DNA from: Candidatus Omnitrophota bacterium
GTDB taxonomy: Bacteria > Omnitrophota > Gorgyraeia > Zapsychrales > JANLHA01
NCBI GenBank assembly: GCA_040753435.1
Contig: JBFMEN010000052.1
Coordinates: forward strand, 129-64,128
Length of the DNA: 64,000 nucleotides
Direction: 5' to 3'
The position numbers were made by a program, and so were the translations under genes. The stretch's first letter is position 1; every line of letters begins with the position of its first letter. Positions 9,001 to 53,036 of this stretch are shown piece after piece. The notes beneath the pieces were generated by a model that made no database searches, had not been told where the DNA came from, and worked only from the letters and a program-made list of their open reading frames with translations.

Positions 9001-12000
9001 CGAAAAGAAAGAAAAGCAGCCCAGGATAAATCTCTACCACAAGTACCGGTTGTGAACATAACCAGAAGGATATCCGAGTCGAAAGATAAGGATATGAAGT
9101 TCTGGAAGTTTGTACGTGAAGCAATCGGTCAAGCCACAAAAGCATCTCAAGAGATCCTCAGAAGGATACGCGGTGCTTGGTTTGCGTTTGTAATCGAGAA
9201 AATCAAGTACAGTATCTCTATTCGTGCGTCCAATTCAGTAGAAAATAACATTAACCATAATATTCAAAAGAGCCCGATTGAAGGCGTCTTTGGCATTGCT
9301 AAAGCTGTCTTTAATCGGGCTTCTTGGTTTGTTGCTTCTAAACAACAAGCCGAAAACAAAGGAGGCGCAAAATGGTTATCGTCAATACTCGAAGGGCTGA
9401 AGACATTGAATTCAAGTATTTCCTTGAAATTCCACGCAGCAATTGCACGTTCTGCTCTTGCAGAGACAGGGGTACAGGCCGAAGCAAGCTATACCTTATC
9501 TTTACCACAGGTAACTTCAGGGTTTATGAAAGAAACGGGCTCAAAGGAACCTGGGAACGTGTTACTGAAGATGAGCAAAGACGAATCCATGCTTTCTTCA
9601 CCCAGGCAGCCTGCAGCAGACAAGTCCCTCATTTCAGCAACAACCGTTTCCAGGAAATCCTTAACCTCAACTAACGGTGAAGATGAGGAAAAAACGTCTT
9701 CATCAGAGCAATCCGAAAAAGCTCAAGATTCAGCCTCTGTTTCCAGAAAAGTCTTAACAGGCATATTCCTTGCCGTTGTCGCATTATCAGGCGCATTAAT
9801 GGCTATAGGAATGGGTACGGCTGAATTCTGGGCGATTTTCGCGATTGCTCTGATCAGCGGCGGCTTTATAGCCAGTCGAATTTTCAATGATATTAAAAAA
9901 TTCGAAGCCGAAAAACGAAGGCCTTCTGATAAAGATAAACAGAAGGAATTAAAGTCTAAATATGGACCAGTGTTCCAGGCCGTTAAGATTGAGGCTGCTT
10001 TGTCAGAAGCCGTTGCCCGGTTACATGCGGCGGCTGCTTTGGTTGATAAAGAGGAAGCAATCAATCTGCGCAAGCAGGCAAAGCTGATCGAAGACGGGCA
10101 ATACGAATCAGTGATTGATGAGCACGCTTCTTCAGAGGAAATCGTCAGCCTTCTTTTGACCATAGCCCTAAGGAAGGCAGGATTAAGCAAAGTTGATCAG
10201 ATGGTCCGCGATCTTATGCGGATTCAGGTAGAAGTTTCTGATGTTTTAGGGAAATACAGCCAAACATCAGTTAGCGGACAGGTACGGGAATATGTTCAAC
10301 ATGAATTTGGGTATGCGGTATCCGATGATATGTTGAGCAAGGCCAGATCCAGAGCCCGGAAAGTTTATGAATTGTTCCAGGGCCGTCTGCAGAAAACAGA
10401 AAAGCTTCTTAAGATCCTTCAGACTTTGGAGCAGCAGAGACAGGGAATTGAAGACAGGCAGAAAGCGTTTAATGCAAAGCATCCGAAACCCGTTTCCCGC
10501 GAGCTTAAACAGATCAAAAAGGAATACCAGAAGAGAGCCGTTGCGATTAATCGCAAAATCAACGCTGTTTCTAAAGATATTGAGTATTTGCGGCTGAACA
10601 CCCTGTTCGGTTCTTATTTAAGAATAATAATTACGGAAGTTGTCCGTGAAGCCCGTTTGCAGGCATTACGCGATCATGGAGAACAAGCTAACAGGCTTTT
10701 CGCTGCCAGGACCAGACTTGAGAAGCTTGAGAAAAAGACAGCCGGAAAGACAGGAAAAGCCAGGGCCGCTGTAGATGCCGAGATCATTGTCCTGAAAAAC
10801 GAGATTCGTATTCTGCAAAACGCGATCGATTCATTTGATGCCGAAACAGAAACGATGGCCGGGAAGGCCAGGAAGGATATCGCTAATGAATTCGGTCCTG
10901 TTGAAATGCCCGCGTCGGTTGAAACTCCTGTTCAAATGCTGGCCAAAGCCGCGGGGACCAGGGCTGAGAGGACTTATCTGCGGGGATTATGGTCCGAAAT
11001 TTCCGGCGAGACGATTGTTCCTGAAGAAGAAATCGAGGATGCCGGGGCAAAAGACTTTTTAAGCTGGAAGTTCCTCGCCCGGGTGTTCTCATTCGGATTA
11101 TTATTGAGCCTGGCCGCGCTTGCTGTCTTCCCGTCGGATGCCCAGGGACAGGATAACGATTCAGACGCGGATGAAAACAAAGCCGCCGATCCCTCTATCA
11201 GCAAAGTTGCAAAATCGTCCGCTTACGCAATGGCAGTTTCCATGATGCAACCGGATACTTCCGCCGATGAAAAATCACATTCCCGTTACGGGGAACCGCA
11301 AAAGCGCGGAGCCGAATCAGCCGGGAATCCCGGGCTTCAGGCCGGCAGCGCAATCCATTCTTACCGGGTCGTTGACGCTGTTTACCTTGATTTCGAGAAG
11401 GACGGCAAGAGCCTGAATATCGTTCAATCGAACGGCGAAGCGATGCCGGATATGATGACAGCTTATTTAGGAGAAGGAAACGAGGCGGATCAATTAGTTA
11501 TCGTTACTTCTGATGGAACGAATTTTGCGATCAATATCGAAAATATCTTGAGCGCGCGGGAGAAAGGCGAATTGTTCGTCTCGGTCCGCGACTCTGCTTC
11601 GCAGATTGCCACTATGCCCGTGGCTGCGCTTGCCGACGTACTGTCCGCCCTGGACGGCAGGACCGGAGCCGAAGCCGGAATGGTCTTTATTATCAACAAA
11701 AATTTGAAACAGGACGGCACACCTTTTGAAAAGACCTTGTTGAATTTACTCAGAGCGGTTGCCGGGAAAGAAGACAAACCTTTGATGAAGACAAGGTTTA
11801 CTTACTTCCCCGGGTTCAACGTTTCCCGTTTTGATCACGGCCGTGATTTCTCGGGCGACGTCAAATGCAGGCGCTTTGATGTGTCCGGGATGCTGGCTGA
11901 AATGGCCGGGGATGAATACCGTGTTAAATCCGGAATCAGCGGAAAAGTTGTTAATGTCGAGCGGAAAAAAGACGGGGTTGAGGTAACGGTCGCGGGAGAT

Positions 12001-15000
12001 GGCGGCAACCATGTTTATCGTGGCTTGAAAACTGCTTATGTTCAAAAGGGCGACAAGGTTAAACCTGATCAGAAGATCGGGCGCAGCAGCAATAAGGAAT
12101 CCGTGAAGCCGGTTGTCCTTACCCTGGAACAGAAGGTGCAGAAGGCGGAAAAGACGATTCAGAAGTTAAAAGAAGGCGCCAGGAAAGAAGAGGCGCGGGT
12201 CGAATCGTTTAACAGGAATTTTGAAGAAACAAAAGAAGCCGTTCAAATGTCTATTGACACGAAGGGAAGGATTTATGAAGACAAGGACGTAAAAGAAAGC
12301 GCCGGTAACTATACTTTAGCCCTTATTGGAGAAGAAGAGCAGACGCAGGACAATCAATTAAAGAATATTGAGACGCTGGTAAAGAACATGAATCCGGAGC
12401 AAGATGAAGATGGCGGCCTGCGGATCACTTTGGGACTTGCGCCTCAAGGCCAGGGATTCAGCGGGTCCATTCCGGGATTACAAACCAGGGTCGGCGGCTT
12501 TGAGTTGGGCGCGTCCAGCAAAAACGCATTTACTTCGACGAATGATATTTTCAATACCCTTGTCAAGCCGGACGAATTATTTAACGGAAGCATCGAAAGC
12601 GTAGTGGCAGGATCATTGTATGCCATGCATGTCGGGACGGAGTTCTGGAATTCAGCGATGAGGGAGAAACATCACGGCGACAGGCAGCATGGAATGATCG
12701 TCATGCCGAAACGCGGAGGACAGTGGGTCGCCTTACCGGTAAGCAAGATTGATACGGAAATCGCTGAGCGGCGCATCGTTCTTAACGACCAGGGCGAATA
12801 TAAATTTGTCGGCGATGATGTTCCCAATGAAACCTATGTTCAATTGGAAGACAACTGGTTTGAATTATACAGCGATGCCATTCGAAAACTTTTCGGTCGG
12901 ATGCCGCTTATCGGAAAGATGTTCGGCGATTATGACGCAGACACGGTTATTGAGCGTTACAAAAAGAATATGAATTTTTATATTCCGGGCGATATCGAGA
13001 GACTGTTCTATCTGAAGGCCCTGATGCGCTCCAAGGACAGCAAGGAGATCTGGAGAGTGCAGCGCAAAGGCGAATACCTGCACGGATATGTGTTTAATCA
13101 GGATAATCCCAAAGAAGTGCGCGAGTATTTCCGTACGCGCATTTTTGCAAAAGAACTGAAAGACTGGAGAGAGACCACTCCTGAAGGCCAGGCGATGACC
13201 GGCAACATGAACGATGGAGATGTCTTTGATTATCCTTCTATCGAGCGCTTGATCGCAAACGGCGAAGACGCCCGAAAGGCATCAATATACGGCGGCATCT
13301 TTGATCCGGTAGCGAACAAATTTATCGCTGTTCTGAGCGGCGGCCGCGTTCTTCCGGTGACCCATAATGTTCAATTGACCCTGAGAACCGACGACATCAT
13401 TCGTCTCGGCAAGACCGCGGAAACGGCTGTTGTGCCGATCCGTGTCGGACATTATCTGGATGATAAAAATACTCCGGCCTACGGGATCTTCATCGCAGGT
13501 ACTCAGAACGCGCTGCTTGATTTCTGGCTGAAATATGGAATCCAGCCCGAACAGTACAACAATGTTGCCGGCGTTATGAATGTTTACACTGTCCGCCAGG
13601 GCGATAATCAGGATTATCTTGAGCACGTCGGATATGAGGAAAGGCAGGAAGCTCCGGCCGAAAACGATTTTGTGAAGGTTCAGTATCGCGAAGAAAAGAA
13701 TATGCGCGGCGAAACCGTCAAGCTGCCGTTAATGCTGCAATACCAGGCTAAACAATCCAGGATTTCTTCAATACCGGCAGAACGCCATATTCCTGAAGGC
13801 ATGAAGGTCGTCGTCCTTGAGCCGGTAAAGAAAGACGGCAAGACGATTGCGACAAAGGTCGGGTTCTGGATTCCGAAACCGGGCAGGATGCCGGTCAAGA
13901 GATTTATCACCGAGACCCAGGTTTTCTATCAATTCGCCGGCGAACCTATGCCCGGGGATATCAGCGGATTCCTTGACGCGGGCGAGATCGATAAAGTCGA
14001 GCGCTTCTGGAATTTCGGCAGCGACAAGGAAAAGGTCGATTTGAAGCCGGTTTTTGACCGCAACGATCCAGAAGATCCGAAAAAGAAATTTACCAGGCTG
14101 GCCGTCTATGTTAATCCCGCGACCGGCAAGAAAGAGATTGCGGTTGTGGACTTCGGCGAAAACGCTCCGAAACTGGCTCCTGAAGTTCAGGAAAAGAATT
14201 ACTTCACAAAGAGCTCCGGATATGGCAACAGCAAGCCCGTGGACGGCGTTCCTGTCCTCGTCTCCGTCGAAAAACCGGTGCCGAACCTGGGGCCTTCTTC
14301 AGATGTCATGACGAACATCGTTAATAATCCATATATCAATGATCTTGAAACTTTAAAAGCAAAAATCACGGCGATTAAAGACTGGCCGGCATCTTTGAAG
14401 AACAACCTCATCGCACAGATTGAAAAGGTTCAGGCTCAGTCGCGCGAGATTGAAGCCCACAAAGACGGCTTCAAGGTTTACGGCAAAATCTACCAGACCA
14501 TGATCAAAGAGTTGAACCGCGCTTACCTGCAGGAAGGCCAGTTGTGGACTGAACGCGCCAGGCAGTTATTTGAGATGTTCAAGGAAGACGCCCAGATTGA
14601 TGTGTTGATGAGCTCCGGTGAAATGCTCATTAATGTCCTGAGAAATATTGCCGCCAGCAAGAACATGAAGCCCGAAGATTATGTTGCCATGCTTGAGGCG
14701 ACAGGGAACCTTGAGCAGGCTGTTTATCATGCGATTGGAGAGCATTATCTAATGAATATGGTCCTCGGAGATGACGCGTTTGAGACCTCACATGCCCGGC
14801 TGAAAGCCATCGATGACTATATTGCCAGACTTAACCTGGTCGGGATTGAACGTAGCACCTTGTTTGATACGGAACTGAAATTCGGAGAAAACGGCCGGAT
14901 CCAGAGCCTTGAACAGATCCTTGAATACAATGAGAGAAAGATTGATGAATTTGAAGCGATGAAGACGAACTTGCAGGACATGCTGGCAGCCCGGGACTAT

Positions 15001-18000
15001 TCAAATATGCTGGAAGAAGAGTCGTCCCTGCGCGCGGAGCGGGTTGCCGCGGAAGCGGATATCAAAGAGCTGACAATATTGATTGGCGGGCTTGAAAACG
15101 AGATCTTGCTCGCGGGAAGCAATGACGCGCTGGCGGCCGCGAGAGAAGAGCAGATCAGACTGGCCCGGGAACAAAAAGCTATTCTGGAGGACAGGATTGT
15201 AAATATCGATAAACAGCTTTGGATTTATGATGTTAAACGGATCAATCCGGAGCTGTATGAAGACGCCCTGAACCAGATGGCTTCCGAATTTATTACAAGA
15301 AGCATTGATCTTCTTGACAGAATGATCGCCTTGCAAAAAGAGCAGTCTGAATTCGCGGTCAGCTCAACAACCACTCCTGTTGTCGATTTCGGCGGGCTCG
15401 ACAATGTTTATCTCGTCGATCCGGCCAAGGCAAGGATATATGCCGGTCAATTATTGAGCGACGGCGAAAAAGAGATCGAGGGAATCAGGAAGGCGATGGA
15501 AGAGAACAAGGCTGTTTTAACTCCGGAAACGGTCTTGTTGTACGATCGTTATGTCAAAGAGTTCTTCCCGCTGCGCGATGCTTATGCCGCCGCCCTGAAA
15601 GAAGCGGCAAATGCCGTTACCTCGGGAGTTCCCGAAGATATTCTCGAAGCCCACAAGAAACTGGCTTTGGCTGAAAAAGCGATGGAGAGCAAACGCGAAG
15701 AAATCTTCGGGCAACTGGAACAACTGCTGGTTAACGGAAATTATTACACGCCGGAACACACTGCTGAAGTCATGAAATGGCTGACGTTCCAGAAAGAATT
15801 GGCGATTGAAGCCGCGAGAAAATTCTTCGCCCGGCGCGGCGCCAACAATCCTCATTTCCACTTGTTGAACGCCATGACAGCGATGGCCAGGACCAATATC
15901 GGGGCCGTTAATGCCGCCAGCGCCGTTCTTGACAAACGGATGGATTTAAAGAGCCTGGAGCGCGATGTCGAAAAAGAACAGCGCAAGTCGGTAGCCTTGA
16001 TCGCCGAATATAACAGGCAGCTCCAGGATCTTGAATCGCTGCTGAAGAATGCCGCCGGCAAGACGTCAACAACAAAGTTGTCGCCGGATCAGGAGAAAGA
16101 AATAAAGACATTTGTCCGTCGTTTCCACAAGGATGAGAATTCGGTTCAGGTCGTCGGGAGCCAGCTCTTCGTCAACGGGAAACCTGTTGACGAGGCCTGG
16201 ATGCCGAAGAACGGGCGAGTGACCCAGTTCATGTCGTCTGAATTTGCCAAGGGGCAGGACGGGGTTTCCAATCCTAACAGCATTGCCGCCTGGATCAACC
16301 GGAACACCGGAATCAACACATATGTAGTCACGACAAACGCGGGCGAGGGCGAAGCTGAAAAGCAGATCTTCTTTATTGAGGTGCCTTTGAGCAGGGATGC
16401 GATTAATAAATTCGAGCACACATTCGGGGCCGGGGTCGAACAGTCCGGAAGTTTTGAAGTCCATACTCCTGACGGCCAGGGCGAATATAAAGTCGAGCGA
16501 AGCCTGATCGGCGTGGACAGCATTACAAAGGTGGGCGACAGGATAGAGTTCAGCGTTGTGGCTTTTGGAAAATTATCCGCGGAAAAAGACGGGACGAACA
16601 CGGCCGCTTTGGCCGGCACGGTCACTTACTATATGACGGATGATAAAGAAAAAGGCGTTCGTCTGGTTGCCGATTTCGGGGCCGCCGCATCCAATAAAGA
16701 TTCAGGCGACATTGAAATGTTCGACAGGGAAGGAAGAAGCATGGGGACCACCTCGTTTGATACATTTGACAGCGCCAAATATCTGAAATTCAAATTCGTA
16801 AAGCCGGTTGCCGAAGGCGTTGCCGTCGGTCTTGGCGGAGAGATCATCAGAGAAGGGGATTTCTCGGGATTGATTAAGGGCGAACAGAAGATGTACCCGG
16901 TCACAAGCGTTGACATCGATCATATTTTGAATTCCGAGACGGCAAAAGCCAGGGCCGAATATGCCGCGCAACTCGCGGTGAAGGGTATTCCTGACAGCAA
17001 TAGAAAGCAGGAACTTTATAACCAGGTATATCAGCACGTTTTGAGCAAAGAACAAATCAGAATCAAGGCCTCACTGGAGCAGGCTCTCGGCTTTGATGTC
17101 ACCCGGTTCCAGGCAAGCGTCGGACGGGTTTGGGCCAGGTATCAACGGACGGAAGGGGCCCAGTCTTACGGAGCGGGAGCAGACATTATCGATAATGGAA
17201 CGGTAAACATGGGAGCAGGAGTCTCGGTCGATCGCTTTGGCAGGCCCAATGTTACGTTTAACGGCGGATACAATGACTGGCTTTCATTCAACGCAGGGTT
17301 CAACAGCCGCACTCCCGCCCTGGCGCTGACCGTCGATCTCTTTAAACTGGTCAGCGGTCTTGGCGGCGATACTGACAGCACTGCTTTGAAAGCGCTCCAG
17401 ACTTCTGATGAATTCGGCTTCCTGTTCGCGATGAGAAAGGCCGGGGTCGACAATCCTGAAGAGGTCGTCGGGGCCATTAAAGAGTTGCGCGAAGTGTTCC
17501 TGAAGGCGGGCAGCCTGGAGGAAGCCCTCGATCATGAGGCGGTCCGGCAGAGAGGGCTTGCCCAAATATTGCGCAAGGGTGAAGTGATCCGCGCCCTGGC
17601 CATCGTTGCCAATGGAGAAGAACAATATGTGAAACATGATATTAATGAGTTTCCGGAAGCTTTCAGAGCGACGCTGTCCGTGCCCGAAGAACACACTCCG
17701 CTTAAAGAAGTGGAGACAAAAGTGACGATGACGAAGGAAAGCGCGCGTCTTAACATGGATCATGTAAGGGAAGACAGGGACCTCTTTGATTCGCCCATCT
17801 ATACATATCAGGCCACGCTGAAAATGATGAGACTCGAAGCCGATATTCAAAATAACGATAATTTCACAAGCATCTTTAGGTTCATCGGCGATCTTCCCCA
17901 GGGCGGGAACAGGACCCAGAGGAGTTTCGCCCGGACTCTCGGCAGCCTGGATGAAAACGAAAGAAAAGAGCTTTCGATCCTGAAGGACGGCAGCCGCTAT

Positions 18001-21000
18001 GGCCTGAGGTTGACCCGTGGAGGAGAGACCAGGGTCCTTCCGCTTGGCGGAGATGACACCCTTGTGATCACTCCTGAAGACGCCGAGAAAGCCGGCATCA
18101 GAAATACGACGGGCTTGCCGATCATTGTTGAAGACAAATCCATTCTGATGAACGAACTGGCGGGCTATCTTGAAAAAGGCCAGGAGGGCTATTATATCGT
18201 TCCGGGAGAAGGAATTTTCGCGATTGAAGACAGGCATCTCAATGATGATTTGACTGATGGCAATGATCTGACTGACGGCGCCATCCCGTTTGTCGACAAA
18301 GATAATGACGGCGAAAATGATGTTGTAGTTGAATTCTCTCCCGGCGCCCTGGCCAGGGTTCATAAACTGCATAACCAGATCGTCGACGGCAAAGTGGTCT
18401 TCATGACGGATGATCAGGTGTTGTGGCGGCTGCTGATTGTTAGCCCGAAGGATGTTGCCCGTGCCGATATGGCAAAGAAGGGTCTGACTCCGCCGCAGAT
18501 CGAGGAAGAGGTCCGCAAGGCCAAACAGAGCCCGCTGGTTAACATGAAGAATTATGATCCGGAGATCAAGGCGCCTTATGTGCTGGTCACCAAAGCCACA
18601 GCGGACAAGATCAGAGAAAAGATTTCAGCCAATGAAAAGGTAGATTCGTTGCGCAAGAATCTGACCGGCGAGGGCGGGATGAAGAAATCAGTCAGGGCTG
18701 CGCATGTTGAAGCGGAAATTATCTCGGCGGTAAACGACAGCATGTTCAACGAAACCAAAAAGGCTTTGGAGAACGGCGTCGGATACAAGTTCCGGTCAAA
18801 GAATGTTTCGACAGACGCTGTTGATTGCAGTGGATGGGTAAGACATCTTCTCAAAAACGCGTCCGAAACTGTCAATTTCGTCTCCGGCGCCAGTATTTTT
18901 GATACCACAAACATGCCCGTTTATGCCGCGGGTATTATCGAACACATCGCGGCCATGGCTCCTCAACCGGTTCTTTCAAATGAAGAAATAAGCGTTGAAA
19001 ACATGAGAGAAGGCATGGTGGTTGGAATAGACACTGGCCGCAAGAGCTGGGATGCCGGCCGGGAACGGGGCATTGATCATATCGCGGTCGTTTTAAGAAA
19101 TCCGGATACCGGCGAGATGATCGTTTCGGAAAGCCGTTCACAAATGGGCGTTATGACAATGGGAGCCGAAGAATGGCTTGCGGAACAAAACGCGGAAGGT
19201 CACAAGCTTTTTGCCGTTAACTTATTTGTCCCGTTAGACAGAAGAGCGGTCAAGCAAGGATTTGAAGACAGAGTTCCGAAGGCCGGGGTCAGCGATTATC
19301 CCGGGACATCAAGCGCGTTTGAAACGAAGGCGGCAAAAATTGCTGTTGACCTCGGGATGAATCCGGACGACCTGATGTCTATCATGTCCTTTGAATCCGG
19401 GTTGAATCCGAAAGCCAGAAACAGGAACGGATCAGGGGCGACGGGCTTGATTCAATTCATGCCTTCTACAGCCAGGGATCTCGGCACGACAACCCAAGCC
19501 CTCGCCGCGATGTCGGACATTGAACAGCTGGATTTCGTTTATGAATATCTGAAGCCGTTCAGAGGACAATTAGGGACAATCGAAGACGCTTATATGGCTG
19601 TCCTTTATCCGAAAGCAGTCGGGCAGGGACCAGAGTATACGCTCTTTACCGAAGAGACGGCCGCTTATAGACAGAACAGGGGATTGGACATAGACAGGAA
19701 CGGCAGCATTACTGCCGGCGAAGCGGTTGACGTCATGCTTCGTGTCAGCAAGAACCGCAGAGTCCTGGGCGGTTTTGAAACATCTCTGCCGGTCAAGGCG
19801 GGACAGGTTTATGACCTTGCCGCGGTTCAGAGAAAAGGTATGATCGGGTATTCCGGCGAGTCGATTAGCAGCAAACAAGACGGGATGACTGCGGAAACTG
19901 TCGGGAATGAGGCTGAAGAATTATCGTCAACAGAGGCCGATCCGGCAGCAGAAGTCATGGAAGCGGAAAAAGACGTGACCGGGGCTGAATTGCGCAAAGA
20001 GCTGAAAACAAAAGAAAACGAGCTTGAGGCCGTCGAGCAGGAGATTTTGAAAGGACAAAACAGGAAGGCGCTTGAACAGGATGCCGGGGAGTTGAATGAT
20101 CGACGGAAAGAAGTTGATGATGAGATTAGATTGCTTGAGGAACAGTTGAGAAAAATTTCTCTAAACAGCCGCCAGGGGAACGCGCAGCCCGCCGGCGCTT
20201 CCGCCGCTATTGCCGGCATGGTTGGAGAATTGTTATCGCCGGCCTCCGCGTTCGCGCAGAACTCGCCGTCTGCCGACGCCAGCGCAGACGCGATCAGAGC
20301 CGAACTCGACAGGAAAGTTCCGGTTCGCGGGGTGACATATTCTCCGGTTCCAGAAGGCGGAGAGAAGATGGAAGGCATTAACTGGGATAATCATTTGAGC
20401 GACATCACCTTATTGAAACAGATGGGCGTTAATACGATCCGTACGTATTATCCGATCACATCGAAAAAATTCCTCGACGCTTTGGCGAAGAATAATATCA
20501 AGGCGATTGTTAATATTCCGAATTATGATGACCGAAGAGTTTCCGGTCCGGATATCAGTACCGGCACTTATAAAAATTATATTAAACAGTTTAAGGATCA
20601 TCCGGCCATCCTGATGTGGGAATTCGGTAATGAGTATAATTATCATCCGGAATGGTTTGGCGGAAATATCAATAACTGGTACAGGATTCTGGAAAATGCT
20701 GCGCAGACCGCGAAACAAATCGATCCGACCCGTAAAGTGGCAACGGCTCACGGCGAACTTCCGGATGCCGGTGCGGTTAAAATGGCTCCGTCAGTCGATG
20801 TCTGGGGAGTAAACGTATACAGAAACGGTGATCCGACGGAAATTTATGATGCCTGGAAGCGCATGCAGGCCGGCAATCAGATCAGGAAAGGACTTCAGTT
20901 ATATATTTCCGAAACGGGAACGGACGCTTTCGACAGCAGATTCGGCAGTGAAGATCAGAGAAATCAGGCAGAGACGGCCAGGCAGATCTGGCAGAACATT

Positions 21001-24000
21001 TTCGCAAAGGCCGATCCTCAAATCTTCCTCGGCGTGACATTTATGACATTCGCCGATGAATGGTGGAAGTCCGGGAACGCTTCGACGCATGATACGCACG
21101 GCTCCGATTTAAGCGTCTCCGGAGACGGCCAGACCAATGAAGAATGGTGGGGATTCGTCGATGTGAACCGTAATCCTCGCCGGGTTTTCGAAGAATTCAG
21201 GAAGTTGTGGGGCGGTTTGGGCGAAGAGAAGAAAGATCTTGATGCGATGTCGAAGGCCGGGATCGAGAAGAGACTGGAACAGTTAAAGGCCCAGCGCGCG
21301 GATCTGGTCAAACAACAGGCGGAAAAAGCGGCCGAGCTGAAGAAAACCGAGCCGGTTGATGTTTCCAGCCTTGAAGCCAAACAGCGGATACGGCAGACGC
21401 TCAGGGCTGAAATTGAGGACATTCGTCAGAAATTATCCGCCGAAGAAAGAGAAGCCCGGCCAATCATAGGCGAACCCGATGACGGCGACGAAGAAAAAAC
21501 TCCGTCCGCGGCTTACAGCATTCCCGCGGTTGAGGAGTTTATGCGGGATAAATTCGCTGTTCCCGGTGAAAACGGAATCGAATATCTCAGACAGGAAGAA
21601 GCCGAAGCGCTTTTAGGTAAAAAGCTTAACTGGGAGCCTGGAGATACAGCTGCTAGCGACTGGAAGTTAAAAAACAAGGCGGGGGAGATTATCGGATTAT
21701 CTCAGCAGCTGCTTGATCTTAGCGCGGCTTTCAAGGCAGGCAAGTTATATTATGATGCGAAGGGCAACTTCTCATATACAGGCAATCCGGAAGACAGGGT
21801 TGTCGCAACAATCAATAATAATATGCAATTCTTCCTTCCGTTCACGCCGAGGATGATTAAAGACTATCGTGAAAAAGGCATGTACCGGTTAGACCGGCAC
21901 GAAATATTTAAATTCAACACCAAGTATGTTTACTTCCTTGATAAGAATATGAACGATCGAGGCGACGAAGGCGAGTTTAAGTATAGTGACATTCAAGAAA
22001 AGGATGAAAAATTGCTGGCGCAGGGATACCAACCCTTAAGAACCGCCAAGGTCAAAAATATTCCGATCTATGATGAAGACGGAAACTTTACTGGAGAAGT
22101 TGATACAAAGGAATACCCGATTACGATGAATGATGAAGGCCGTGCGATTTTTGATCAATGGGACAACATTCTAAGAGGCGGCAGACAAGTCTGGCACGGA
22201 GGGCTGACGTTGGCTCCGATCGGCAAGAAGTCGTATGCGGATTTGGACGGCGGCGGCGAAAAGCTTGATGAAATAACTCCGAGAGCTGTCGATGCCGAGT
22301 TTATCAGAAAGGATTACAGAGAAACCGATAATAAATATGTTTATTACCAAATCCTCGAAATCCAGAACCGTTTTAACGGCGAAGTTCGTCAGGAAATTCA
22401 GAAGATTCGCAAAGATCCGGATCATCCTGGGACAAACTATTCACGGCTAGTGAGAAAATATGAAGGCGTCTACAAAAACGGCAGCTTTGTCCCGAGGAAG
22501 GTGACGGTTTTCGGTTACAACGGATTCCATAATGTCCCAAGTACATCAACGACATATTTCACAAATGGAGAGGGTGTCATCACGGATGCTAAAGGAAATA
22601 TTCTTGATGAGAAGGATTTGAAAACAGAGTTCGATTCTCGGGCAACGACATTGGAGAAAACAGAAGCAAAGAAAAATACCGAAGGCCACATTTTCTCTAA
22701 TATTGAAAATAAGACAATCAACTTGAGTCTGGAAGAAGAAAAGGATCGGCAAGGACGCGTGATCAGAACTGTCGAAGGTGATAAAGTTTCTACTTTGTTC
22801 TATGAAGGTCCGGCCGGCGCGATTGATCTTTCATACAAAGGCGAAACCCGCGTCAATGGAAGGCTGATTGATGAAAACCTTCTCTATTATGCCAGTGGCG
22901 ACCGGATTAAAGATATCAGTAAAGCGGATGTTTATAGATTATTTAACGGTGAACATATCATCTTTTATCGTGGTTACAAGTATTATCAGATTTCTTCTGA
23001 GGAAGGGGAAGAGGTAACCATTGCCGTTCCTTATCAGCAGATCAAGAACGCGAAAGGTCAGATTATCGAGACGCGTCTTGGAAGCGGGGAATGGGAAGAC
23101 TTTGCTCCGTCAGAAAAAGGCGCCAAATTGATGAGGCCGGGAGAGCCCTTCAGCAATACATACACGACCTATAGTTTCTACCTTGATGAACTGGGCAAAG
23201 GCGCTGTTCACTGTTTTGATTCGCCGGATGTCGCTATTAAGACAGTCCGGACAGTGACCCAAAACGGAGTCGAGGAGATCGAAGCTTTTGCCAACACGAC
23301 AAGGCTGGTGGATGGAATTATCCGTTATAAAACTAAGCGCGGGCTTGTTGAAGACAGCGTTAACCAAAAGTTTGCCCAGGCAGAAGATAAGCGCAAGTGG
23401 TTATTGGATTATTTGAAAGACAGCAAGCATGAAGGAGACATTCCTTTTGGATATATTATGGAATCCAAGGATGAACGCAAAGACGGCGAAGGGCAGCTTA
23501 AGATCCTTTTGACAGACGCCAGGGAATTCAATCAATTCGGGTTTCAGAAAGACGGCGCGATCAAGTACATTACATTCCTGGATTATCCGGCTAAAGGCGA
23601 TGACCGTGTTGTCATATCCAGTGTGACGTATGAAGTAAAGCGTGACGAAGGCGGGATCATAGAGGACAGGGGCGCATATGCGGATGAAAAACAGATCGTT
23701 ACGGATGGCAATTCCCGTATAGTGATTGCAACTGTACTCGAGATTAATCGTGAAGGCCGAGAGGTTGCGGTTAAAGTTCCGGTTATTGTGACCAGTACGC
23801 ATGATGAGAGGCGTTCCAAGCAGAGCATTACGAACCGCGCGGTAAGACTTGATGATGGACGACTGCTCGCTGAATTCCATACCGGCAAGCCCCTGCGTGA
23901 TAATAAATTAATCGTGCTCTTTAATGGTCAGCAGTTGCCGGTTTCAACTGAACGCATTGATTGTTTAACTATGAAAAAGGGAGAGCCTGTTTTTGAACAC

Positions 24001-27000
24001 GGTCTCGAATCGATTAAAAACCGTTCCGCCTATAAGGAACATAAAACCGTATTGATCAAGGGCGAAACCGCTAAATATTGGGTTTATGATATTGATGCTC
24101 GCGATCATGTTGAATGGGGCGTCTACTCTTTCCGTGATAATACGGCCTTTATGGATAATGAGTTTGTGGCAGGTCATCAGATAAGGAAGGAAGTGCCATT
24201 TATTCAATTTATGGATGAAAAACAGGCAGAGGCCGTTGCTCAACGTAATGGAACATTGTATGAGAACGACATGCCGCAATTCCGTAAAGACAACCGCTAT
24301 ACTCCGCGGGTTTATTTACCGCAAAGTGAAAAGTTCAGTTCTTGGGAGTTTATTGAAAATCAAATTAATCATGTTAAGCACAACAGCTTCAGCACTAATT
24401 TCTCCTTCCGATTGCTTGATACATGGCTGACGTCGTTTAGTTTTATCTTAGGCGGCCTTGTCGGTATTCCGATTCTGACACTGATGCTGCTGCGAATGAC
24501 ATCACTCTTTATGGAACTGGTGATGAGGATTTTTGTCACTAGCAGAAAGGATGTTGTGCTGGCTAAGACAGCCAGGTTGCGGTATCGGTTGAGCGAATAT
24601 ACCAGAAAGACGATTCATGGCGAGACGAAAGAAGTTGCCAATTCTCAAGCAGCGTCGTCGCAGACAGTGACCCGCAAGGAACTGGAGGTGTGGGTTAGAG
24701 ATTTCAATTATGAGAAAACGTTTATCGATTATCTGGAAAGCAGAATTAATAGTGATGAGTTTAAAGACAAGAGCAAAGAAGAAAAGAAAAGCTTTGTTGA
24801 GAAGAGAGTGCGTTTTTGGACTAACCTGATTTGGTATCACGCCGGGCTTGGAGGCCTTTTTGTCCATATGAAATCAGGTCAGATGTATCTATTCCGTAAA
24901 GGTTTCATCTTCACTCCAACTGAATTGAAGTTCTTGATTCGATATCATAATGAAAAGGGACAAGATGTTGAGAATTTCAAGCTGAGAAACGGCCAGACTT
25001 TAGGTGAGCTGATCGAAATGGATATTTTTAAAGCCCCGATCTCGTCTATGGTCCCAGATCAACAGAAGTATTTGATCGAAGATATTGTTGACCTTATCCG
25101 CGCATATCTCCAGGAAAAATATGAAGAGAAGCGGGATGTTCGGATTCTAAAATGGACGTTTAGTGTGCGCACCAAGTTTACACTTTTCAAATATCCGATG
25201 ACTCGGATTTGGTTTAATTTTGTTACTTATCCGTCTCTGATTTTGCGCGTGTTCACATCCCGTAAGGAATTTAATAATAAAAAACTGACTGACTCTGAAC
25301 AGGCCAAGCTGAAAGTAGCCCGGCGCTTCTGGATGACGGGATTGAGTGAGTGGTTGCTTTTGAATGCTGTCCTGATTTGGGCTTCCGTTTATTTTGGCTT
25401 CGGCATTATCGACGGCTGGGTTTTTGTCGGTTCGGCCCTGATTCTGGGATTGCACCTGAAGTTGTCGTTCCGCGGCATTTTCTACTTGAATTATACGGCG
25501 GCTGAAAGGGTGCTGTCCAGAATTATGAAATACCGCGAAGTCAGAACCATGAAAGATGTTCGTCGCGTACTGCCGGAAATTCTTGAAACAGACGAAGGCC
25601 GAGAATTCTTTAATGAGGCGATCAAGTGGCTGGCCTCCGAGGGCTCATACACACATCAGCCGTATATCTCAAAAGAAAAAGTAGAGTTATTGGAAGGTAT
25701 TCTGGATGGAACGAGAAACATTGATGAGCTGAAGACGCTTGATGGTCCGGAATCAGGAGCAGGTCAATTGTTCAATGTTAAGAAGATCGGCGATGCTGAA
25801 GCGGATCAGTATCTAATTAACTGGATTAATATGTATCTCATTGATCAGATCGATATTACCTCCGAAGATCAGGTCCATCCGTTCACCATCCAGCTTTCCG
25901 GGTTTAATGAATTTGCGCGGATACGTTTTAAGGTAAAGAGCAAGGAAGATCTGAAGGTGATGAGCCGTCAAGAGTTGGAAGCGCTCAAAGAAAACAAGGA
26001 GAGGTTTGACGAGTATGTTAAAAATTTAAGCAATGACCTTGATGCTTTGGTTAGCCGAGGCTCGGTCGGAGGTATGAAGGGGGTTTTCCTTGTAGAAACC
26101 AAGTTTACCCGCATTAAGAAAACCCATATGAATCAATGGCAGTATTTTCTTGAATCCTTGGCGGAAAAAGCCGGAAAGTCAATTCCTAAAGAAGAGTACA
26201 AAGAATTGCTTGCTGTGGAGACTTCTGCGGCAGAGACATGGAGAATTCTTAATAAATTATTCAATGAGGAGGCCGAAGAGGGCAAGAAGATTAAAAATAT
26301 CGATTTTCTCATGGAAGAATTTGCGAACTTCCGCACAGAGAACTATTACAAAACTATCATGACAACGTATCAGTCAATCATCCAGCGATATCGTGTCTTG
26401 GCGCGAAGATTATTGGCTAAGAAATATTCAATAAACCTAAAAGATGTCAGTGAAGACGAGATTAACAAATGGGTTCGTTCCAGGATTCAAATGACGGTTT
26501 ATATGGATGGAGGGGCTTTCCCAGAAGATTTGGCTGGGATTTGGGCTGAACATCAGGAGGACACTCTGGAAGGTGGTTTCCGATGGACATTCGATCACCA
26601 GAAGAATTTCATGCTTATCTGGGAGAAAGCGACAGGATTATCAGCAGGAACAGAGATAGAGAGAGAATCTCTGGGGAATCCGGGAAAGACAACTTGGGAA
26701 GATCTAAAGAAAGCACTATTGAATATTATTGAAAAAGAAGAAGTTGCGAAAAATAAGAAAGACGCATTAGTTAAACTAACAAAACAATATTATAGTAATT
26801 TTGCCACTCCAGAAAACCCGGGTGACATTGTGCTTATTCAGGGTAATTTCCCGTTAATGGGAACCAAGTTCAACGGATGGGCTCAGCGTAAACCTTACAC
26901 CAAACATGAGCTCATGTTCGCTCTTGACGTTGGTCATCGTATCACGATCGGTGATATGTGGGGCCTGCCTAATGAGTTCCGCAAGTTTGAGGATCCGAAG

Positions 27001-30000
27001 CTGGCCTGGCTCTCGTTTGATTACGCGACCTACGGCGAACGATGGGGCTGGGTGACCAAGATCACGGCTTTGTCTGAACATGGGTTCAATACGATTGTCC
27101 GCGCCGCTAAAGACCTGGTCGATACGGATGTGAATGTGGGTAAAGGTCTTATGAGAAAGAGCGCTTTTGATGATATGGCCGGCCGCGAATATACCTCTGA
27201 AGATACGGCCATGAGCAATAATCAAGTCCCGGCAGGCAAGCAGTCACACTACACCCACAAGATCCGCATCATGCAGTCGGTTGAAAAGACACAAATGGAG
27301 GCCCATGGGTTTATTACCCGTTTCGGTTCGTCAGTTGTTGAAATGTTGATCAGCGGCATTCCATATCAGAAGTTCCTGAGTTCAGCGGCTCACTGGACAG
27401 TCAAGCTCGGAACGCTGTTTAGCCACGGTTTTTATGTGAACGAGACCTGGATCATCTGGGCCAATATCGTAATGGTCATTGCCGCGTATTTTCTGCCGCT
27501 TAATATTTACGCTTACCTGGCATTGCCGTATTTCGGTATCGGGCTTGGTCTTTCTCTCGCTAACGCCATCAACGCCTCCGCGCAATCGCTTCATACATAC
27601 AGATTCGGATGGTTACGCGGTGCTGTTGTTTACTTCGCCTTCTTCTGGTTGTACCTTGCCTATTACACAGCCTTCATTCCGGTGCATGATCAGAAGGTAA
27701 TGGAAGGATTGAAGCGCCAGGTTATTTTCTCTCTCAGTCCGCGTATCAGTGATTCGATACGTCATCCTGCTAAAGAAGTTTATAAGCGCTTTAAGCCTTC
27801 GATTCAGAAGGGAATTATAATTTGGGCGTTCCTGCTGTTGGCGCCGTTCCATCCCGTGGCAACTGTTATTAATATTTTCTTCTTTACCATGACCTTAAGC
27901 TGGATCTTCGCGCCGTTCCTGTTTAACTACCATCCGAAGTTATTGGCACGAATAGGGCTGGGATTGAGAGATTCTGTTTTGGGAATCTGTTTCGCGTTAA
28001 AGGATATGCCCTTCGATTTATATGCAAGGGTTAAGAAAATGATAAATGACAAGAGGTTTAGAAAACTGGTTGCAAGGAAGGCAGAAGATAATAAAAATAA
28101 AAAAGAAATAAAAGAAATTTTTGCTAAGAAAGATCCGCTGATTTTTGCCAAAAAGATGAAAGAAAAGGCAGCAGAGATTTGGAATGGTTTGGAAACAAAA
28201 GAACAGATAATTGTTGAATTAAAGATGTGTGATACGGAGGGAAAAGCTATAAAAGGTCAGAAAGAAATGATGATCCGCAACTTCTTCTTTGAACTCGTTG
28301 ATCATATTGATCAAGATGGATTGCTGCGCGATGCCGGACAAGTTTTTGACCACGCCGAAGATGCAATCATGAAGCCGGAAGGCAGAGACGCCGGGAAAGA
28401 CGCGAAGAAAGGCTCTGATACAACGCTTCGTTCCTTCGCGCTTCCGGCTGCGCTGATCACCTATGGCATGACGACCGCCAACACCAACGTCGTCGCGGCC
28501 GGTCTCTTGAGCCTCATCGCCTTCGCCGCCTGGTTCGCGCTCAGGACTCCGCTCAGATCGTTCCGGTCGATGAGTTTTGTCAAAGCGCTCTTCTCCCAGT
28601 TCGCTTTCATTTATGAACAGGGGGTCCTCAAGATCCGCGTAGAGACGACCGGGGAAGCCGATGAGACCATTGCCCGGCAAGAGAAAGCGGCCAGGGAAGC
28701 CGAAGCGGCTTTACAGACAGCATTTGCTCAGCGCCGAACGGGATCATCGCCCGTCGGCTCCGTTGTTCACACATCTGCTTCTTCCAGGAAAGAGTTAGCC
28801 TTAAGGGTCTGGCGAGATTACTTTGAAGGAAAGGTCGGGCAGGATCCGGCCATGCTGGCCGAGGTAATTGAGCTTCTCAACGCCCAGCCGGAAGTCCGCG
28901 ACGCCGCCATGATCGCCGGACCCGACAGTGAATACAGCGAGTTCTGGAGAAACGCAGCCCGCAAGGCCGCTGAAGCCGCCACCGCCGCCCAGCCGGAAGA
29001 TGACGATCAGAATCAAGAAGATAGCCGCGTTGGGCACATTAATGCTGAAACCGAAAAAGCTTTTTCGATGGAACAATCCGATAACGCCATGGTGACTGAA
29101 TCTTCTGACATTGAGTCGGACAAGAGGACGCAGGCCAAGGTTCAAGAACCGCCAATCCTTGAAGGGTATAGAAAAATTTATGAGGAGATATACAAGAAAT
29201 CAATTTCGAGGCCGTTTGGAACTAATCCTGAAAATCCGGAATTGGCGACAGACTGGTTCTTGACCGAAGAAGCTGCACTGCCGCACTTTGCTATTTTTGT
29301 TAATCCCTCACCTGAACTTGCGCAAAAAATCTTGTCCATTCAGCAGGAGTTTTTCCTTCGGTTACCGCGATCGATACAGCAAAAATTCGTCCTTATACAG
29401 CCGCATGATTTCCATGTTACGTTTACAGGCGTAAACTTTTTTAATGAAGCAACTGATTCTGAAAAAGCAGTTCGGGCGGCAGCAGAGATTGTTCAGAAAA
29501 GACAGGGATTGACGCCGTTTGAGTTGAAGCGCATTGGGGTGTTTGAAGGCGGAGCTATTATGATTGAGGCCTATCCCAAATCTGATGAATCTTTGCGTGC
29601 CTTAACAGCAATTCATCAAGAGCTGCAGCGCTCCTTAAATCGACAACCGATGTTTGCCTTGCCGTTGTTCCATCTGACCCTTGGATATATAACGACGCGT
29701 CTGACACAGGAAGAACATCAAGAATTAGTAAACATTATTGAACAGTATCGAGGGGATTTTAATTTAGAGTTTGCTTTTGATAGAGCGATGACTTACAGAT
29801 GGGATATTGACCCCGATGTGAAATCGGGAAGAGCCGCGATAACAAAAGAGAAATTTTTTGATGTGAAAGAACTGTCTGTGATCGAGATCGGGAAAGAGAA
29901 TATCAAAAATGATTCAGAAAAGAATTTTAACAACGGTTCGACGGTTCTTTCCTTCGCGTTGCCGACCGCGGTGATCGCTGCCGGAATGACAACCGCCGAC

Positions 30001-41649: not shown

Positions 41650-41890
41650 TGATTGGTCCGGGGGGGGGGTATGTTTATGGTGGTGAAAAAATTTAATGTA
41701 GAGACGTCTTGGCGGGATGTCTCCAGGCAAGAGGGTAATGGCGTCGTCGATGCAGAGATGACCCGGCGGGTCATCTCAAACGGCAATGAGTCGGTTCTTC
41801 CGACGGAGACGTCTCATCGGGACGGGGCACAGGAGATTGCTGGAAGGGAGACGTTGGGCAGGAGGAGTCTGAAACGGAACTTCAGTTGAT
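41650..41890. repeat. Palindrome-rich intergenic repeat element, copy 1, containing a G10 homopolymer at 41660-41669
   Basis: gatgattggtccgggg...gagacgtct/agacgtctc inverted repeats...atgacccggcgggtcatctcaaacggcaatgagtcggttcttccgacggagacgtctcatcgggacggggcac.ggagattgctggaagggagacg. The same string (about 90% identical) recurs at 55812-56050. Confidence 0.85.
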
Positions 41891-52800: not shown

Positions 52801-53036
52801 GTGTAAACTTGGGAGACAGGGAGGTTATTAGTAGTGACGTTGGAGGCATTGACTTAAATTCTAACAATTTAGAACTAAATGTTCAGGGTGATGAGGTAAA
52901 GATGAGCCCTTATCCCGGAATTTTAAATGAAATTTCCGTTAATGGATTTGTTCCCGTTATCATTGATGTCGCTCCAATTTCAAACGTTCCAATATTACTT
53001 GGTATTCAATCAGTTGAAACCACCGGCGTTAGATAA
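49887..53036 (+). CDS. Secreted modular paralog 3 (1049 aa): signal peptide, shared N-terminal domain, divergent middle with a methyltransferase-like motif, shared C-terminal module
   Basis: It starts 5 nt after the stop of the previous gene (translational coupling). Signal peptide VVSACLIVILAVTLSVPAQAQS. The N-terminal domain is conserved (ITIYPDNPLKFDFIVSPGDDNLKGDALKKEADKLIKYFMASLTVPADEMWVNLSPYEKDRIIADGL...). VLRIRDEGVSTGTLSENLF...KYIATDL (about 52060-52170) resembles SAM-MTase motifs I and II. The C-terminal module is GGIDLNSNNLELN...FVPVIIDVAPISNVP. Confidence 0.9.
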   Translation: MKNPKSTIYRVVSACLIVILAVTLSVPAQAQSALTPSVIEGLNLPAPGTMISLSSAYNPPIIKGITIYPDNPLKFDFIVSPGDDNLKGDALKKEADKLIKYFMASLTVPADEMWVNLSPYEKDRIIADGLSQTELGRDLLAQDYILKQVTASLMYPEEKLGDDFWKMVYAKAQVQFGTTEIPVNTFNKVWIVPEKANVYVHGNNIFVVDSYLKVMLEEDYLALETNLKHANHGVGIIPKDQIEETSDVSRQVIREILIPEIEKEVNQGKNFASLRQIFNSMILATWYKKNLKESLLGQVYVNQNKVEGVDLKDKQVKEKIYNQYVKALEKGVFDFIREDDDPIAQERIPRRYFSGGIQGADNVGERIMSYAEIEKVFVGDEALITVELRNPKNPSERLVDTGATMKKLWTKIKKISVSDNDRWFLRDGNLSHWEQIIDGQVEFDKEKMVITFSVGNNKGETQRISVKVKKVVSKNEIVKGAHLEAGALRFLGVADWYDTKFQGETVLLEENPYNINYISTDSIIGVSEFLFQNEPSSIAYPIIETAIKSDRKFFAQAANRSGDEVRGWISKALGYFPFQSLDWESVPKQFLAKALARNELTRYENILRLEDVLFAGQIDVNEKTNSNAKALFSLNPVRRLRAYMALKQTNDLEEAKLLKEMYPRASIAMKKLVRFLFYWVTREEAMVTGEYYGITRKGNSRLKDTKERLDQLLPTLLERFPNEVLRIRDEGVSTGTLSENLFRHVASKTKEFKYIATDLVTKLIYITNSEKGYTAVFTDEQDGHTDNFIQIKQGNRIYTPQGVNRVVRVLGEDAASFTAEVRSAFEMYKQEGGLSDKYVTEEVGLFDFEVEKLAKTDERFELSQHNIFQKVPTQEQGHLTILSNVLVPTYYSQSELVEGIKSAGLNTVEGGLVLVINESYLGTGLGPVSDGIYVHPFSVFERRGNQLVRLFFSSIGPQKGFNRAMKAEDIESVNLGDREVISSDVGGIDLNSNNLELNVQGDEVKMSPYPGILNEISVNGFVPVIIDVAPISNVPILLGIQSVETTGVR

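Follow-up and report, generated by a model that had tools for sequence, protein, structure and literature searches.

Putative murein- and glucan-cutting domains on a predicted exported segment of a 13,873-residue Omnitrophota protein

We analyzed a 64,000-nucleotide (nt) stretch of DNA from a Candidatus Omnitrophota bacterium (contig JBFMEN010000052.1, positions 129 to 64,128; the whole stretch is called the window here), in which a single open reading frame (ORF), 22..41643 (+), encodes a giant protein of 13,873 amino acids (aa). This 41.6-kb frame is uninterrupted, its translation ending in one terminal stop codon, and all of the domains discussed here lie inside it, on the + strand. A preliminary description of the window had claimed that three catalytic domains for degrading cell walls or glycans are packed consecutively into about 2.4 kb of coding sequence (nt 18760-21200, which corresponds to aa 6247-7060 of the giant protein). 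Indeed, we found that all the motifs it quoted belong to this one frame: DCSGWV with Cys6269 (nt 18826-18828), GIDHIAVV with His6353 (nt 19078), SFESGLNP with Glu6458 (nt 19393-19395), GATGLIQFMPSTA, EFGNEYNY with Asn6870-Glu6871 (Glu at nt 20632-20634) and YISETG with Glu6964 (nt 20911-20913).

We set the limits of the three domains with hidden Markov models (HMMs) built from homolog alignments, which placed a cysteine peptidase of NlpC/P60 type at aa 6233-6411 (18718..19254), an SLT-type lytic transglycosylase at aa 6421-6579 (19282..19758) and a clan GH-A glycosidase at aa 6763-7065 (20308..21216). Each is present in one copy, and together they cover ~2.5 kb, close to the extent originally given. 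The three are consecutive in one frame, as had been claimed, but the packing is tight only in part: the gap between the peptidase and the SLT domain (hereafter, together, the cassette) is 9 residues, whereas a linker of 183 aa (19759..20307), recognized by its sequence and composition, separates the SLT domain from the glycosidase. This linker has a heptad-like Glu/Lys/Leu-rich stretch, followed by an Ala-rich hydrophobic piece, AIAGMVGELLSPASAFAQ, directly before the glycosidase, and by eye it appears to be partly coiled-coil. We regard antisense ORFs inside the region (for example 19827-20378, minus strand) as chance ORFs within the 41.6-kb coding frame.

The peptidase domain is a distant match to known families. 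The Pfam NlpC/P60 model scored E 0.19 (12.1 bits) on the domain in its context and E 0.006 (17.0 bits) on the isolated domain, below the gathering cut-off of 23. The domain had no match in a word-indexed protein search, in which a query of peptidase plus SLT domain found matches to the SLT part only, and phmmer found no match to it among PDB sequences. An exhaustive phmmer search yielded 333 homologs at E <= 1e-3, including 170 at E <= 1e-10, with the top homolog at E 7e-37 and 43% identity. Among 140 aligned peptidase domains, Cys6269 is conserved in 139 and His6353 in all 140, as are Tyr6255 (137), Asp6268 (137), Ser6270 (135), Gly6271 (134), Ser6371 (135) and Gly6376 (137) to nearly the same degree; the residue at 6370 alternates between Glu (71 domains) and Gln (66), with His in the remaining 3. 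The nucleophile Cys sits in a D-C-S-G motif after a G-x-x-Y-x-x-G stretch, as it does in NlpC/P60 proteins (the sequence here is GVGYKFRSKNVSTDAVDCSGWV).

Comparisons at the level of the family point in the same direction. NLPC_P60 is the top Pfam family among 20 family members, listed (E <= 1) by 15 of them, with a best E of 1.6e-4, although none of the 20 reaches the cut-off. When the family profile was compared with the PDB, the three best matches were all E. coli Spr/MepS (E 3.5e-4). Alignment to E. coli MepS with hhalign gave 94% probability over the Cys motif, and a relaxed hhalign run aligned the remainder of the peptidase domain in the same order. In a manual register, set where hhalign confidence is low, HVGIY...HASTSSGV of MepS corresponds to HIAVV...ESRSQMGV here, and the domain carries an insertion of ~45 residues after the Cys helix relative to MepS. 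On these grounds, we accept the peptidase as a divergent branch of the NlpC/P60 superfamily (PF00877, MEROPS C40) that falls outside the Pfam family as delimited, with Cys6269-His6353-Glu6370 as its predicted triad. The earlier proposal of an NlpC/P60-like Cys-His peptidase is borne out by the conserved triad and by the profile match to MepS, but not by the Pfam score, which stays below the cut-off of PF00877.

The SLT domain had been identified correctly from the outset, since it reaches 35.5 bits against PF01464 (cut-off 21.3), and its best solved relative is PDB 9udh_A, an entry named 'lytic transglycosidase' that matches along 139 residues (E 3.4e-36). Next among the solved relatives comes 9k2v_E (E 2e-13), with a match of 83 residues that includes the catalytic Glu and GLIxF; this 'internal protein' is from the pre-ejectosome entry of cyanopodophage A4 (PMC12002296). 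A large protein database holds 1,378 homologs of this domain; those among the matches listed are 45-61% identical to it. They are mostly proteins of 200-650 aa, with fusions to PG_binding_1, peptidase M74, LysM, VanY, M23 or CHAP. The catalytic Glu6458 (of FESG) is invariant in 30 of 30 SLT sequences, and so are G60, L61, Q63 and F64 of GLIQF. By these sequence comparisons, we regard it as a genuine domain of the family-1 lytic transglycosylases.

We examined the domains that accompany this peptidase family in other proteins. In a Pfam scan of 53 full-length peptidase homologs, the most frequent partner was T6SS_VgrG3-like_C (12/53; T6SS, type VI secretion system), followed by PG_binding_1 (7/53), XVIPCD (5/53), Phage_lysozyme2 (5/53), SLT (4/53 by the Pfam model), Glucosaminidase (1/53) and the Gp5 trimerisation domain (1/53). 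With our own SLT profile, an SLT domain was also found in 14 of the 150 best peptidase homologs, and both domain orders occur. Moreover, a tblastn search of plasmids with MepS repeatedly returned the annotation 'bifunctional lytic transglycosylase/C40 family peptidase' from Gram-positive plasmids (Enterococcus, Bacillus). XVIPCD is the secretion signal of bacteria-killing effectors of the Xanthomonadales type IV secretion system (X-T4SS), most of which are predicted to be periplasmic murein glycohydrolases, transglycosylases or peptidases (PMC6536674). To judge from these architectures, a glycan cutter combined with a peptidase of this family is a known two-enzyme unit for breaching murein, mostly in devices of antagonism or penetration.

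The third domain was correctly recognized as a clan GH-A glycosidase. It scores 35.8 bits against Pfam PF02836 (GH2 TIM barrel; cut-off 21) and has 1,860 homologs at E <= 1e-3. Most of the 120 best of these stand alone as proteins of ~300-470 aa, and they show 39-53% identity over 84-100% of the domain. Where a source is named, it is usually a member of the Bacteroidota and in some cases of the Kiritimatiellales or Puniceicoccaceae, and many of the stand-alone homologs carry a sorting domain of the type IX secretion system (T9SS). Asn6870, Glu6871 (the predicted acid/base, in the Asn-Glu motif) and Glu6964 (the predicted nucleophile) are invariant in 36 of 36 aligned sequences. Structure prediction, which the preliminary description had suggested for the region, was informative for this domain: AlphaFold2 returned an eight-fold beta/alpha barrel with a predicted local distance difference test (pLDDT) score of 88.4 and a predicted template modeling (pTM) score of 0.89. 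In the model, N111/E112 (Asn6870/Glu6871) follow strand 4 (residues 104-109) and E205 (Glu6964) ends strand 7 (200-206), a placement that constitutes the clan GH-A signature. Thus, the residues proposed earlier as catalytic in the three domains (Cys at about 18826, Glu at about 19393, 20634 and 20912) are all conserved in the homolog alignments, and we predict that all three domains are catalytically competent hydrolases.

To which family the glycosidase belongs bears upon its substrate. When its family profile was compared with solved structures, GH158 came first (E 6.6e-14, over positions 63-200 only, that is, strands 2-6), GH2 enzymes ranked after it, and GH157 followed (E 3.5e-7 over positions 25-287); identity to the closest solved structures is 19-23%. 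Pfam found no GH2 N-terminal or Ig domains in the giant protein or in the stand-alone homologs, the barrel PF02836 being the only part of GH2 that matched. Since these domains are missing and the barrel follows straight after the linker, we do not place the domain in CAZy GH2 proper, and we arrived at no other CAZy family for it. Nor did we retain GH5 or GH72, the families named in the preliminary description, or an activity on murein or chitin, since GH72 and GH17 fall below their cut-offs and the nearest relatives are GH158, GH2 and GH157. The substrates of GH158 are beta-1,3-glucans (PMC13195107).

The genomic context of the stand-alone homologs was informative as well. In Tenacibaculum, Eudoraea and Ancylomarina, the homolog lies in a block of GH17, GH30 and MFS genes, which in Tenacibaculum also includes GH16. 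The gene order in Algoriphagus appears to be the same, with the MFS gene the only one of those neighbors that has a Pfam match, and two further genomes with a stand-alone homolog showed no laminarin-type context. We take the GH16/GH17/GH30/MFS block to resemble the laminarin-utilization loci of marine Flavobacteriia. All four laminarin-type clusters (Bacteroidota loci L031, L032, L034 and L036) also keep an unannotated protein of ~1,130-1,153 aa without a Pfam match, which is encoded upstream of the GH17-like gene and the GH-A homolog in three of the loci and further upstream in L036. We read the glycosidase as a retaining beta-glycosidase, and its kinship to GH158 and GH157, together with the laminarin-type clusters of its stand-alone homologs, makes beta-1,3-glucan the more probable substrate. 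The description of this third domain as a cell-wall enzyme was probably mistaken in this respect, because beta-1,3-glucan is likelier than murein. The link drawn earlier to the wall-penetrating proteins of phages and secretion systems suits the peptidase-SLT pair.

We also noted an Ala-rich hydrophobic stretch upstream of the glycosidase (20206-20260, aa 6729-6746) that ends in ASAFAQ and resembles a signal-peptide cleavage region. A comparable Ala-rich piece stands at the equivalent place before the glycosidase in L016, one of the related loci described below. It may have been left over from the signal peptide of an ancestral glycosidase that was secreted as a stand-alone enzyme.

The giant protein had been described as membrane-anchored, and Kyte-Doolittle hydropathy supports this with at least 10 strongly hydrophobic segments. 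Strong helices are found at aa 2368, 3237/3260 (a hairpin) and 3684, the next one comes only at aa 8131, and a helix cluster extends up to aa 10013. We found no hydrophobic helix between aa 3706 and 8130, a segment of 4,425 aa that holds all three hydrolases. At its N-terminal boundary lies a signal-anchor-like helix, aa 3684-3705 (11071..11136; Kyte-Doolittle peak 2.12), with K/R residues before it and the acidic stretch PSDAQGQDNDSDADEN after it. Its C-terminal boundary is a second Kyte-Doolittle peak, aa 8131-8153 (24412..24480), which would run from outside to inside and is followed by the K/R-rich stretch TSRKDVVLAKTARLRYR. Applying the positive-inside rule to both bounding helices, we infer that aa 3706-8130 lies outside the cytoplasm.

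Several observations agree with an exported location of this segment. Besides the three hydrolases, the segment contains an M23/LytM-like region (aa 3966-4036, 11917..12129), which scores 26.7 bits against PF01551 (cut-off 28.7) and in which no HxH motif is visible by eye. This region is probably a catalytically degenerate, non-catalytic module of LytM type, and we did not accept it as a fourth active wall enzyme given the sub-cut-off score and the missing HxH. Moreover, many of the stand-alone glycosidase homologs, those with T9SS domains, are secreted. Modules of cytoplasmic type are found beyond the C-terminal helix cluster, in the C-terminal third of the protein (~29400-36250 (+), aa 9798-12072): a 2H-phosphoesterase-like stretch below its cut-off, SLOG/LOG matches (PF03641, PF18306) above theirs, and two HATPase_c stretches, for which PF02518 is above and PF13589 below the cut-off. 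Finally, the giant protein as a whole has 20 Cys in 13,873 aa (0.14%), none of them before aa 3949, and the predicted nucleophile Cys6269 is one of just four in the 4,425-aa segment. This near absence of Cys likewise fits export; the HMGL, aldolase, MutL and MutS proteins encoded downstream have 1.3-1.9% Cys, and three large ORFs that follow the giant gene have 0.06-0.12%.

A hydrophobic module of ~55 aa occurs twice in the C-terminal part of the protein, at 28432-28600 and 29950-30120 (+) (aa 9471-9527 and 9977-10032, ~500 aa apart). It reads SFALP…GMTTA…VVAAGLLSL.AFAAWFA…TPLR.F…SF.KALFS.FA, and its two copies bracket the 2H-like region.

To find relatives of the giant protein, we scanned one genome per species and obtained 28 loci, each matched via the glycosidase domain (37-62% identical), mostly from metagenome-assembled genomes (MAGs) labeled Omnitrophota or 'uncultured Planctomycetales'. 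In 23 of the 28, the glycosidase lies within an ORF that is very long or spans the whole of the available locus DNA. Neither the peptidase nor the SLT family was found within +-10 kb of the glycosidase in any of the 28 loci, and hence in none of the 23 giant ORFs; a metagenome scan with the segment aa 6100-6420 likewise found no close relative. Other stretches of the giant protein are collinear with several of these ORFs: upstream of the glycosidase in L016, downstream of it in L001 and L002, and into the helix cluster in L019, L026 and L027. L016 matches on both sides, with ~235 aa where the giant protein has ~700 aa, and it lacks the cassette. L026 (Omnitrophota MAG JAAEQW010000102.1) has two GH-A copies, at aa 1957-2247 and 3244-3534 of its ORF and ~1,000 aa apart, which indicates that the domain can duplicate within such proteins.

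In view of these comparisons, we rejected the possibility that the three domains form one unit conserved across Omnitrophota giant proteins, since only the glycosidase is common to the relatives. Instead, the glycosidase probably belongs to a scaffold that these proteins share, and the cassette was probably gained in the present lineage; given its absence from all 28 loci, and from L016 in particular despite collinearity, this is the most economical account. Loss of the cassette from the relatives is the less economical alternative. The absence of the cassette from the 23 giant ORFs suggests that proteins of this kind become longer by acquiring effector modules that already exist elsewhere.

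Downstream of the giant gene are genes for an HMGL-like protein, a KDPG aldolase (13 kb away), MutL and MutS, which indicate that the DNA is chromosomal; the window holds no integrase, relaxase or phage genes, and tRNA and Rfam scans of it found nothing. Directly after the giant gene come three large ORFs: one of 1,652 aa with a CofD-like stretch (42238-47196, +), followed by two of 864 aa (47287-49881, +) and 1,049 aa (49887-53036, +), each of the latter with a hydrophobic C-terminal tail and no Pfam match. All three have a lower GC content (about 0.39-0.43), signal-peptide-like N-termini and similar mature starts (…LNLPAPGT…SSAYNPP…). We consider them candidate secreted partners of the giant protein. 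Further along is a type IV pilin or type II secretion pseudopilin of 184 aa (54494-55048, +), recognized by its prepilin-type N-terminal methylation motif MKNGFTLLELV…; secretion and pilus genes close to giant genes have been noted in the literature. A G10 homopolymer (41660-41669) lies 17 nt past the stop codon of the giant gene, and the ~600-nt AT-rich spacer before the next gene contains two copies of GAGACGTC (41701 and 41806), which occurs four times window-wide.

Taken together, we propose that the peptidase and the SLT domain, joined by their nine-residue linker, would form one murein-cutting cassette, in which the SLT domain would cleave the MurNAc-GlcNAc glycan strand via Glu6458, and cuts in the stem peptide or cross-link would be made by the peptidase through Cys6269, His6353 and Glu6370. 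The GH-A domain would act beside them as a retaining beta-glycosidase (Glu6871, Glu6964), probably on beta-1,3-glucan. Held on a long tether to the inner membrane, these enzymes would act locally, at the site of contact, to digest the envelope and matrix polymers of a bacterium that serves as host or prey. We give an even chance to this proposal, in which the three hydrolases are displayed on the 4,425-aa extracytoplasmic segment of an inner-membrane giant protein and attack a bacterial partner or prey, and for which we infer the topology, the substrates and the target cell. An attack on bacteria is suggested by the effector pedigree of the cassette, by its dispensability in related giant proteins and by the published framework. 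The pedigree is an offensive one, in that the peptidase has kin in antibacterial T6SS and T4SS effectors and the SLT domain in the ejection protein of cyanopodophage A4. As for the framework, degradation of the prey cell wall has been proposed for Omnitrophota giant proteins, and a giant protein of V. archaeovorus is more abundant when the cell is attached to its prey (both in bioRxiv 10.1101/2023.11.21.568195).

A number of points weigh against an attack on bacteria by an exported segment. We deduced the topology solely from hydropathy and the bias of charges, and the upstream helices (2368, 3237/3260 and 3684) have a self-consistent parity only if one further, weak helix is counted. In a diderm cell, 'outside the cytoplasm' would mean the producer's own periplasm, and we identified no mechanism by which the segment would cross the producer's outer membrane. 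Pfam found no VgrG, PAAR, XVIPCD or other delivery domain in the giant protein, and no immunity gene was identified. The assignment of the peptidase has to contend with the sub-cut-off Pfam score and with a single-sequence AlphaFold2 model that is unusable (pLDDT 38), so that structure prediction served for the barrel but not for this domain. The one relative in culture has an archaeon, Methanosaeta, as its prey (West-Roberts et al. 2023, bioRxiv 10.1101/2023.11.21.568195). To our knowledge, this archaeon has no murein.

We considered that the cassette might instead open the producer's own wall, making gaps in its sacculus through which the segment, a pilus or a secretion apparatus could pass the murein. 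The domains are predicted to be in the producer's periplasm, tethered to the inner membrane; peptidoglycan synthesis is intact in Omnitrophota, and a type IV pilin-like gene is nearby. On conjugative plasmids, proteins annotated as a lytic transglycosylase fused to a C40 (NlpC/P60) peptidase are commonplace, and the 14 of 150 peptidase homologs that also have an SLT domain are in keeping with this. Dedicated transglycosylases or peptidases do similar work in the T4SS (VirB1), in flagella and in Gram-positive conjugation, and VirB1 is itself an SLT protein that acts in T4SS biogenesis (PMC6536674). However, the 23 related giant ORFs do without the cassette, which is therefore not needed for export of such proteins, and the commonest partners of the peptidase are effector modules (the VgrG3-like C-terminal domain, XVIPCD) rather than assembly proteins. 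An opening of the own wall would also leave the adjacent beta-glucanase-like domain unexplained. On balance, we hold this explanation to be possible, if somewhat unlikely.

It is less probable, to our minds an outside chance, that the enzymes serve in tethered scavenging of nutrients, digesting environmental or necromass murein fragments and beta-glucans at the cell surface with no attack on living cells. Omnitrophota have a reduced metabolism, with carbohydrate-import genes near giant genes, and the stand-alone glycosidase homologs are catabolic enzymes of laminarin-type utilization loci. The pairs of lytic transglycosylase and NlpC/P60 peptidase in this family are known, however, from effectors and penetration devices and not from catabolic loci, and the window has no adjoining transporter or sugar-catabolic gene except the KDPG aldolase 13 kb downstream. 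We also asked whether the giant protein could be a polyvalent protein of a conjugative or phage-like mobile element, acting in DNA or protein transfer, or a collection of decayed relics of domain accretion. A single chain that unites murein hydrolases and modules of the 2H, SLOG/LOG and HATPase_c types is reminiscent of polyvalent proteins from phages and conjugative elements, and the M23-like region looks degenerate. Yet the catalytic residues of all three domains are intact at invariant or almost invariant family positions, the predicted nucleophile Cys persists although the protein elsewhere avoids this residue, the giant gene has housekeeping genes as neighbors (MutS, MutL, aldolase), the window is free of integrase, relaxase and phage genes, and homologous giant ORFs occur across many Omnitrophota MAGs. 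We therefore consider such an origin highly improbable.

A bolder version of the proposed attack on bacteria would make the giant protein a weapon complete in itself, which acts on contact while tethered and carries, beside a beta-glucanase, a murein-toxin cassette captured from effectors of T6SS/T4SS type. The cassette is located just past the midpoint (57-64% along) of the 4,425-aa segment, which is anchored at both ends. If this idea were true, which we think unlikely, the weapon would attack the envelope of a neighboring bacterium without release or injection of an effector, a mode of delivery that differs from all numbered secretion systems and from contact-dependent inhibition (CDI)/Rhs toxins.

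The giant proteins of Omnitrophota are among the longest known, and almost nothing about them has been examined experimentally. The three sub-domains, of 160-300 aa and with clear catalytic residues and predicted substrates, could be expressed and assayed, so that the hypothesis of wall degradation becomes testable, and the murein-specific cassette argues that this lineage interacts with bacteria. Since the general idea has already been published, the surprise for specialists will be moderate, and the main value lies in small assayable pieces of an intractable protein.

Close parallels to the cassette are found in the effectors of the T6SS (VgrG3-like) and X-T4SS. These share the same divergent NlpC/P60-like family (27-45% identity, E down to 7e-37), they likewise pair the peptidase with a glycan cleaver (VgrG3-like C-terminal domain, phage lysozyme, SLT or glucosaminidase), and they act on murein in the periplasm (PMC6536674). 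The effectors differ in being soluble proteins of 300-2,600 aa that are injected by a machine and recognized through VgrG, PAAR or XVIPCD, whereas the domains here are internal to a membrane-anchored giant. Conjugative lytic transglycosylase/C40 proteins, of which TraG of pIP501 and PrgK of pCF10 are examples, also combine a glycan cleaver and a cysteine peptidase in one membrane-anchored chain, by means of which a large apparatus is brought across the murein. In contrast to the giant protein, they usually have the SLT domain first rather than the peptidase, are a few hundred residues long, work on the donor's own wall and use a canonical NlpC/P60 or CHAP domain in place of the divergent family. 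The internal protein of cyanopodophage A4 (9k2v) has a C-terminal domain of the same SLT subfamily and similarly places the enzyme on a large protein that is brought to the target wall, but it is viral, packaged in the capsid, delivered through the tail and without a peptidase or GH-A partner. The glycosidase shares with GH158 and GH157 the clan GH-A barrel, the Asn-Glu motif and the Glu nucleophile, and it resembles the 'GH2 TIM-barrel-only' proteins of Bacteroidota (39-53% identity over >90% of the domain), which are stand-alone proteins of 330-430 aa; unlike these stand-alone relatives, it is internal to a giant protein and not a secreted enzyme.

Giant proteins of Omnitrophota with glycosyl hydrolases and peptidases, and with SLT as 'a less common domain', were described by West-Roberts et al. 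2023 (bioRxiv 10.1101/2023.11.21.568195), and Nielsen & Lui 2026 (bioRxiv 10.64898/2026.06.07.730766) reported 916 proteins of at least 10,000 aa, whose frequently found families include a peptidase module and HATPase_c. The protein analyzed here resembles these in being encoded by one very long ORF, in its numerous predicted transmembrane helices, in the glycosyl hydrolase and peptidase domains within it and in HATPase_c, and Omnitrophota MAGs contain giant ORFs collinear with its glycosidase and the stretches beside it. It differs from the 46 proteins of 'Archaeovorin' type, which exceed 30,000 aa, in its length of 13,873 aa, and Pfam found in it no SecA-DEAD, C39, glycosyltransferase, methyltransferase, NUDIX or dockerin domain. 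Its smaller size and the missing SecA-DEAD, glycosyltransferase, methyltransferase and NUDIX domains lead us to count it among Omnitrophota giant proteins more broadly, and not as a strict Archaeovorin. It differs from the 23 related giant ORFs as well, as the only one to have the peptidase-SLT cassette. Thus, while wall-degrading domains, including SLT, were already known in Omnitrophota giant proteins, our analysis makes an incremental addition that we found in neither of these two studies: an NlpC/P60-like domain of T6SS/T4SS-effector type, its tight pairing with an SLT domain of phage-ejection type, and a GH-A domain as a probable relative of beta-1,3-glucanases.

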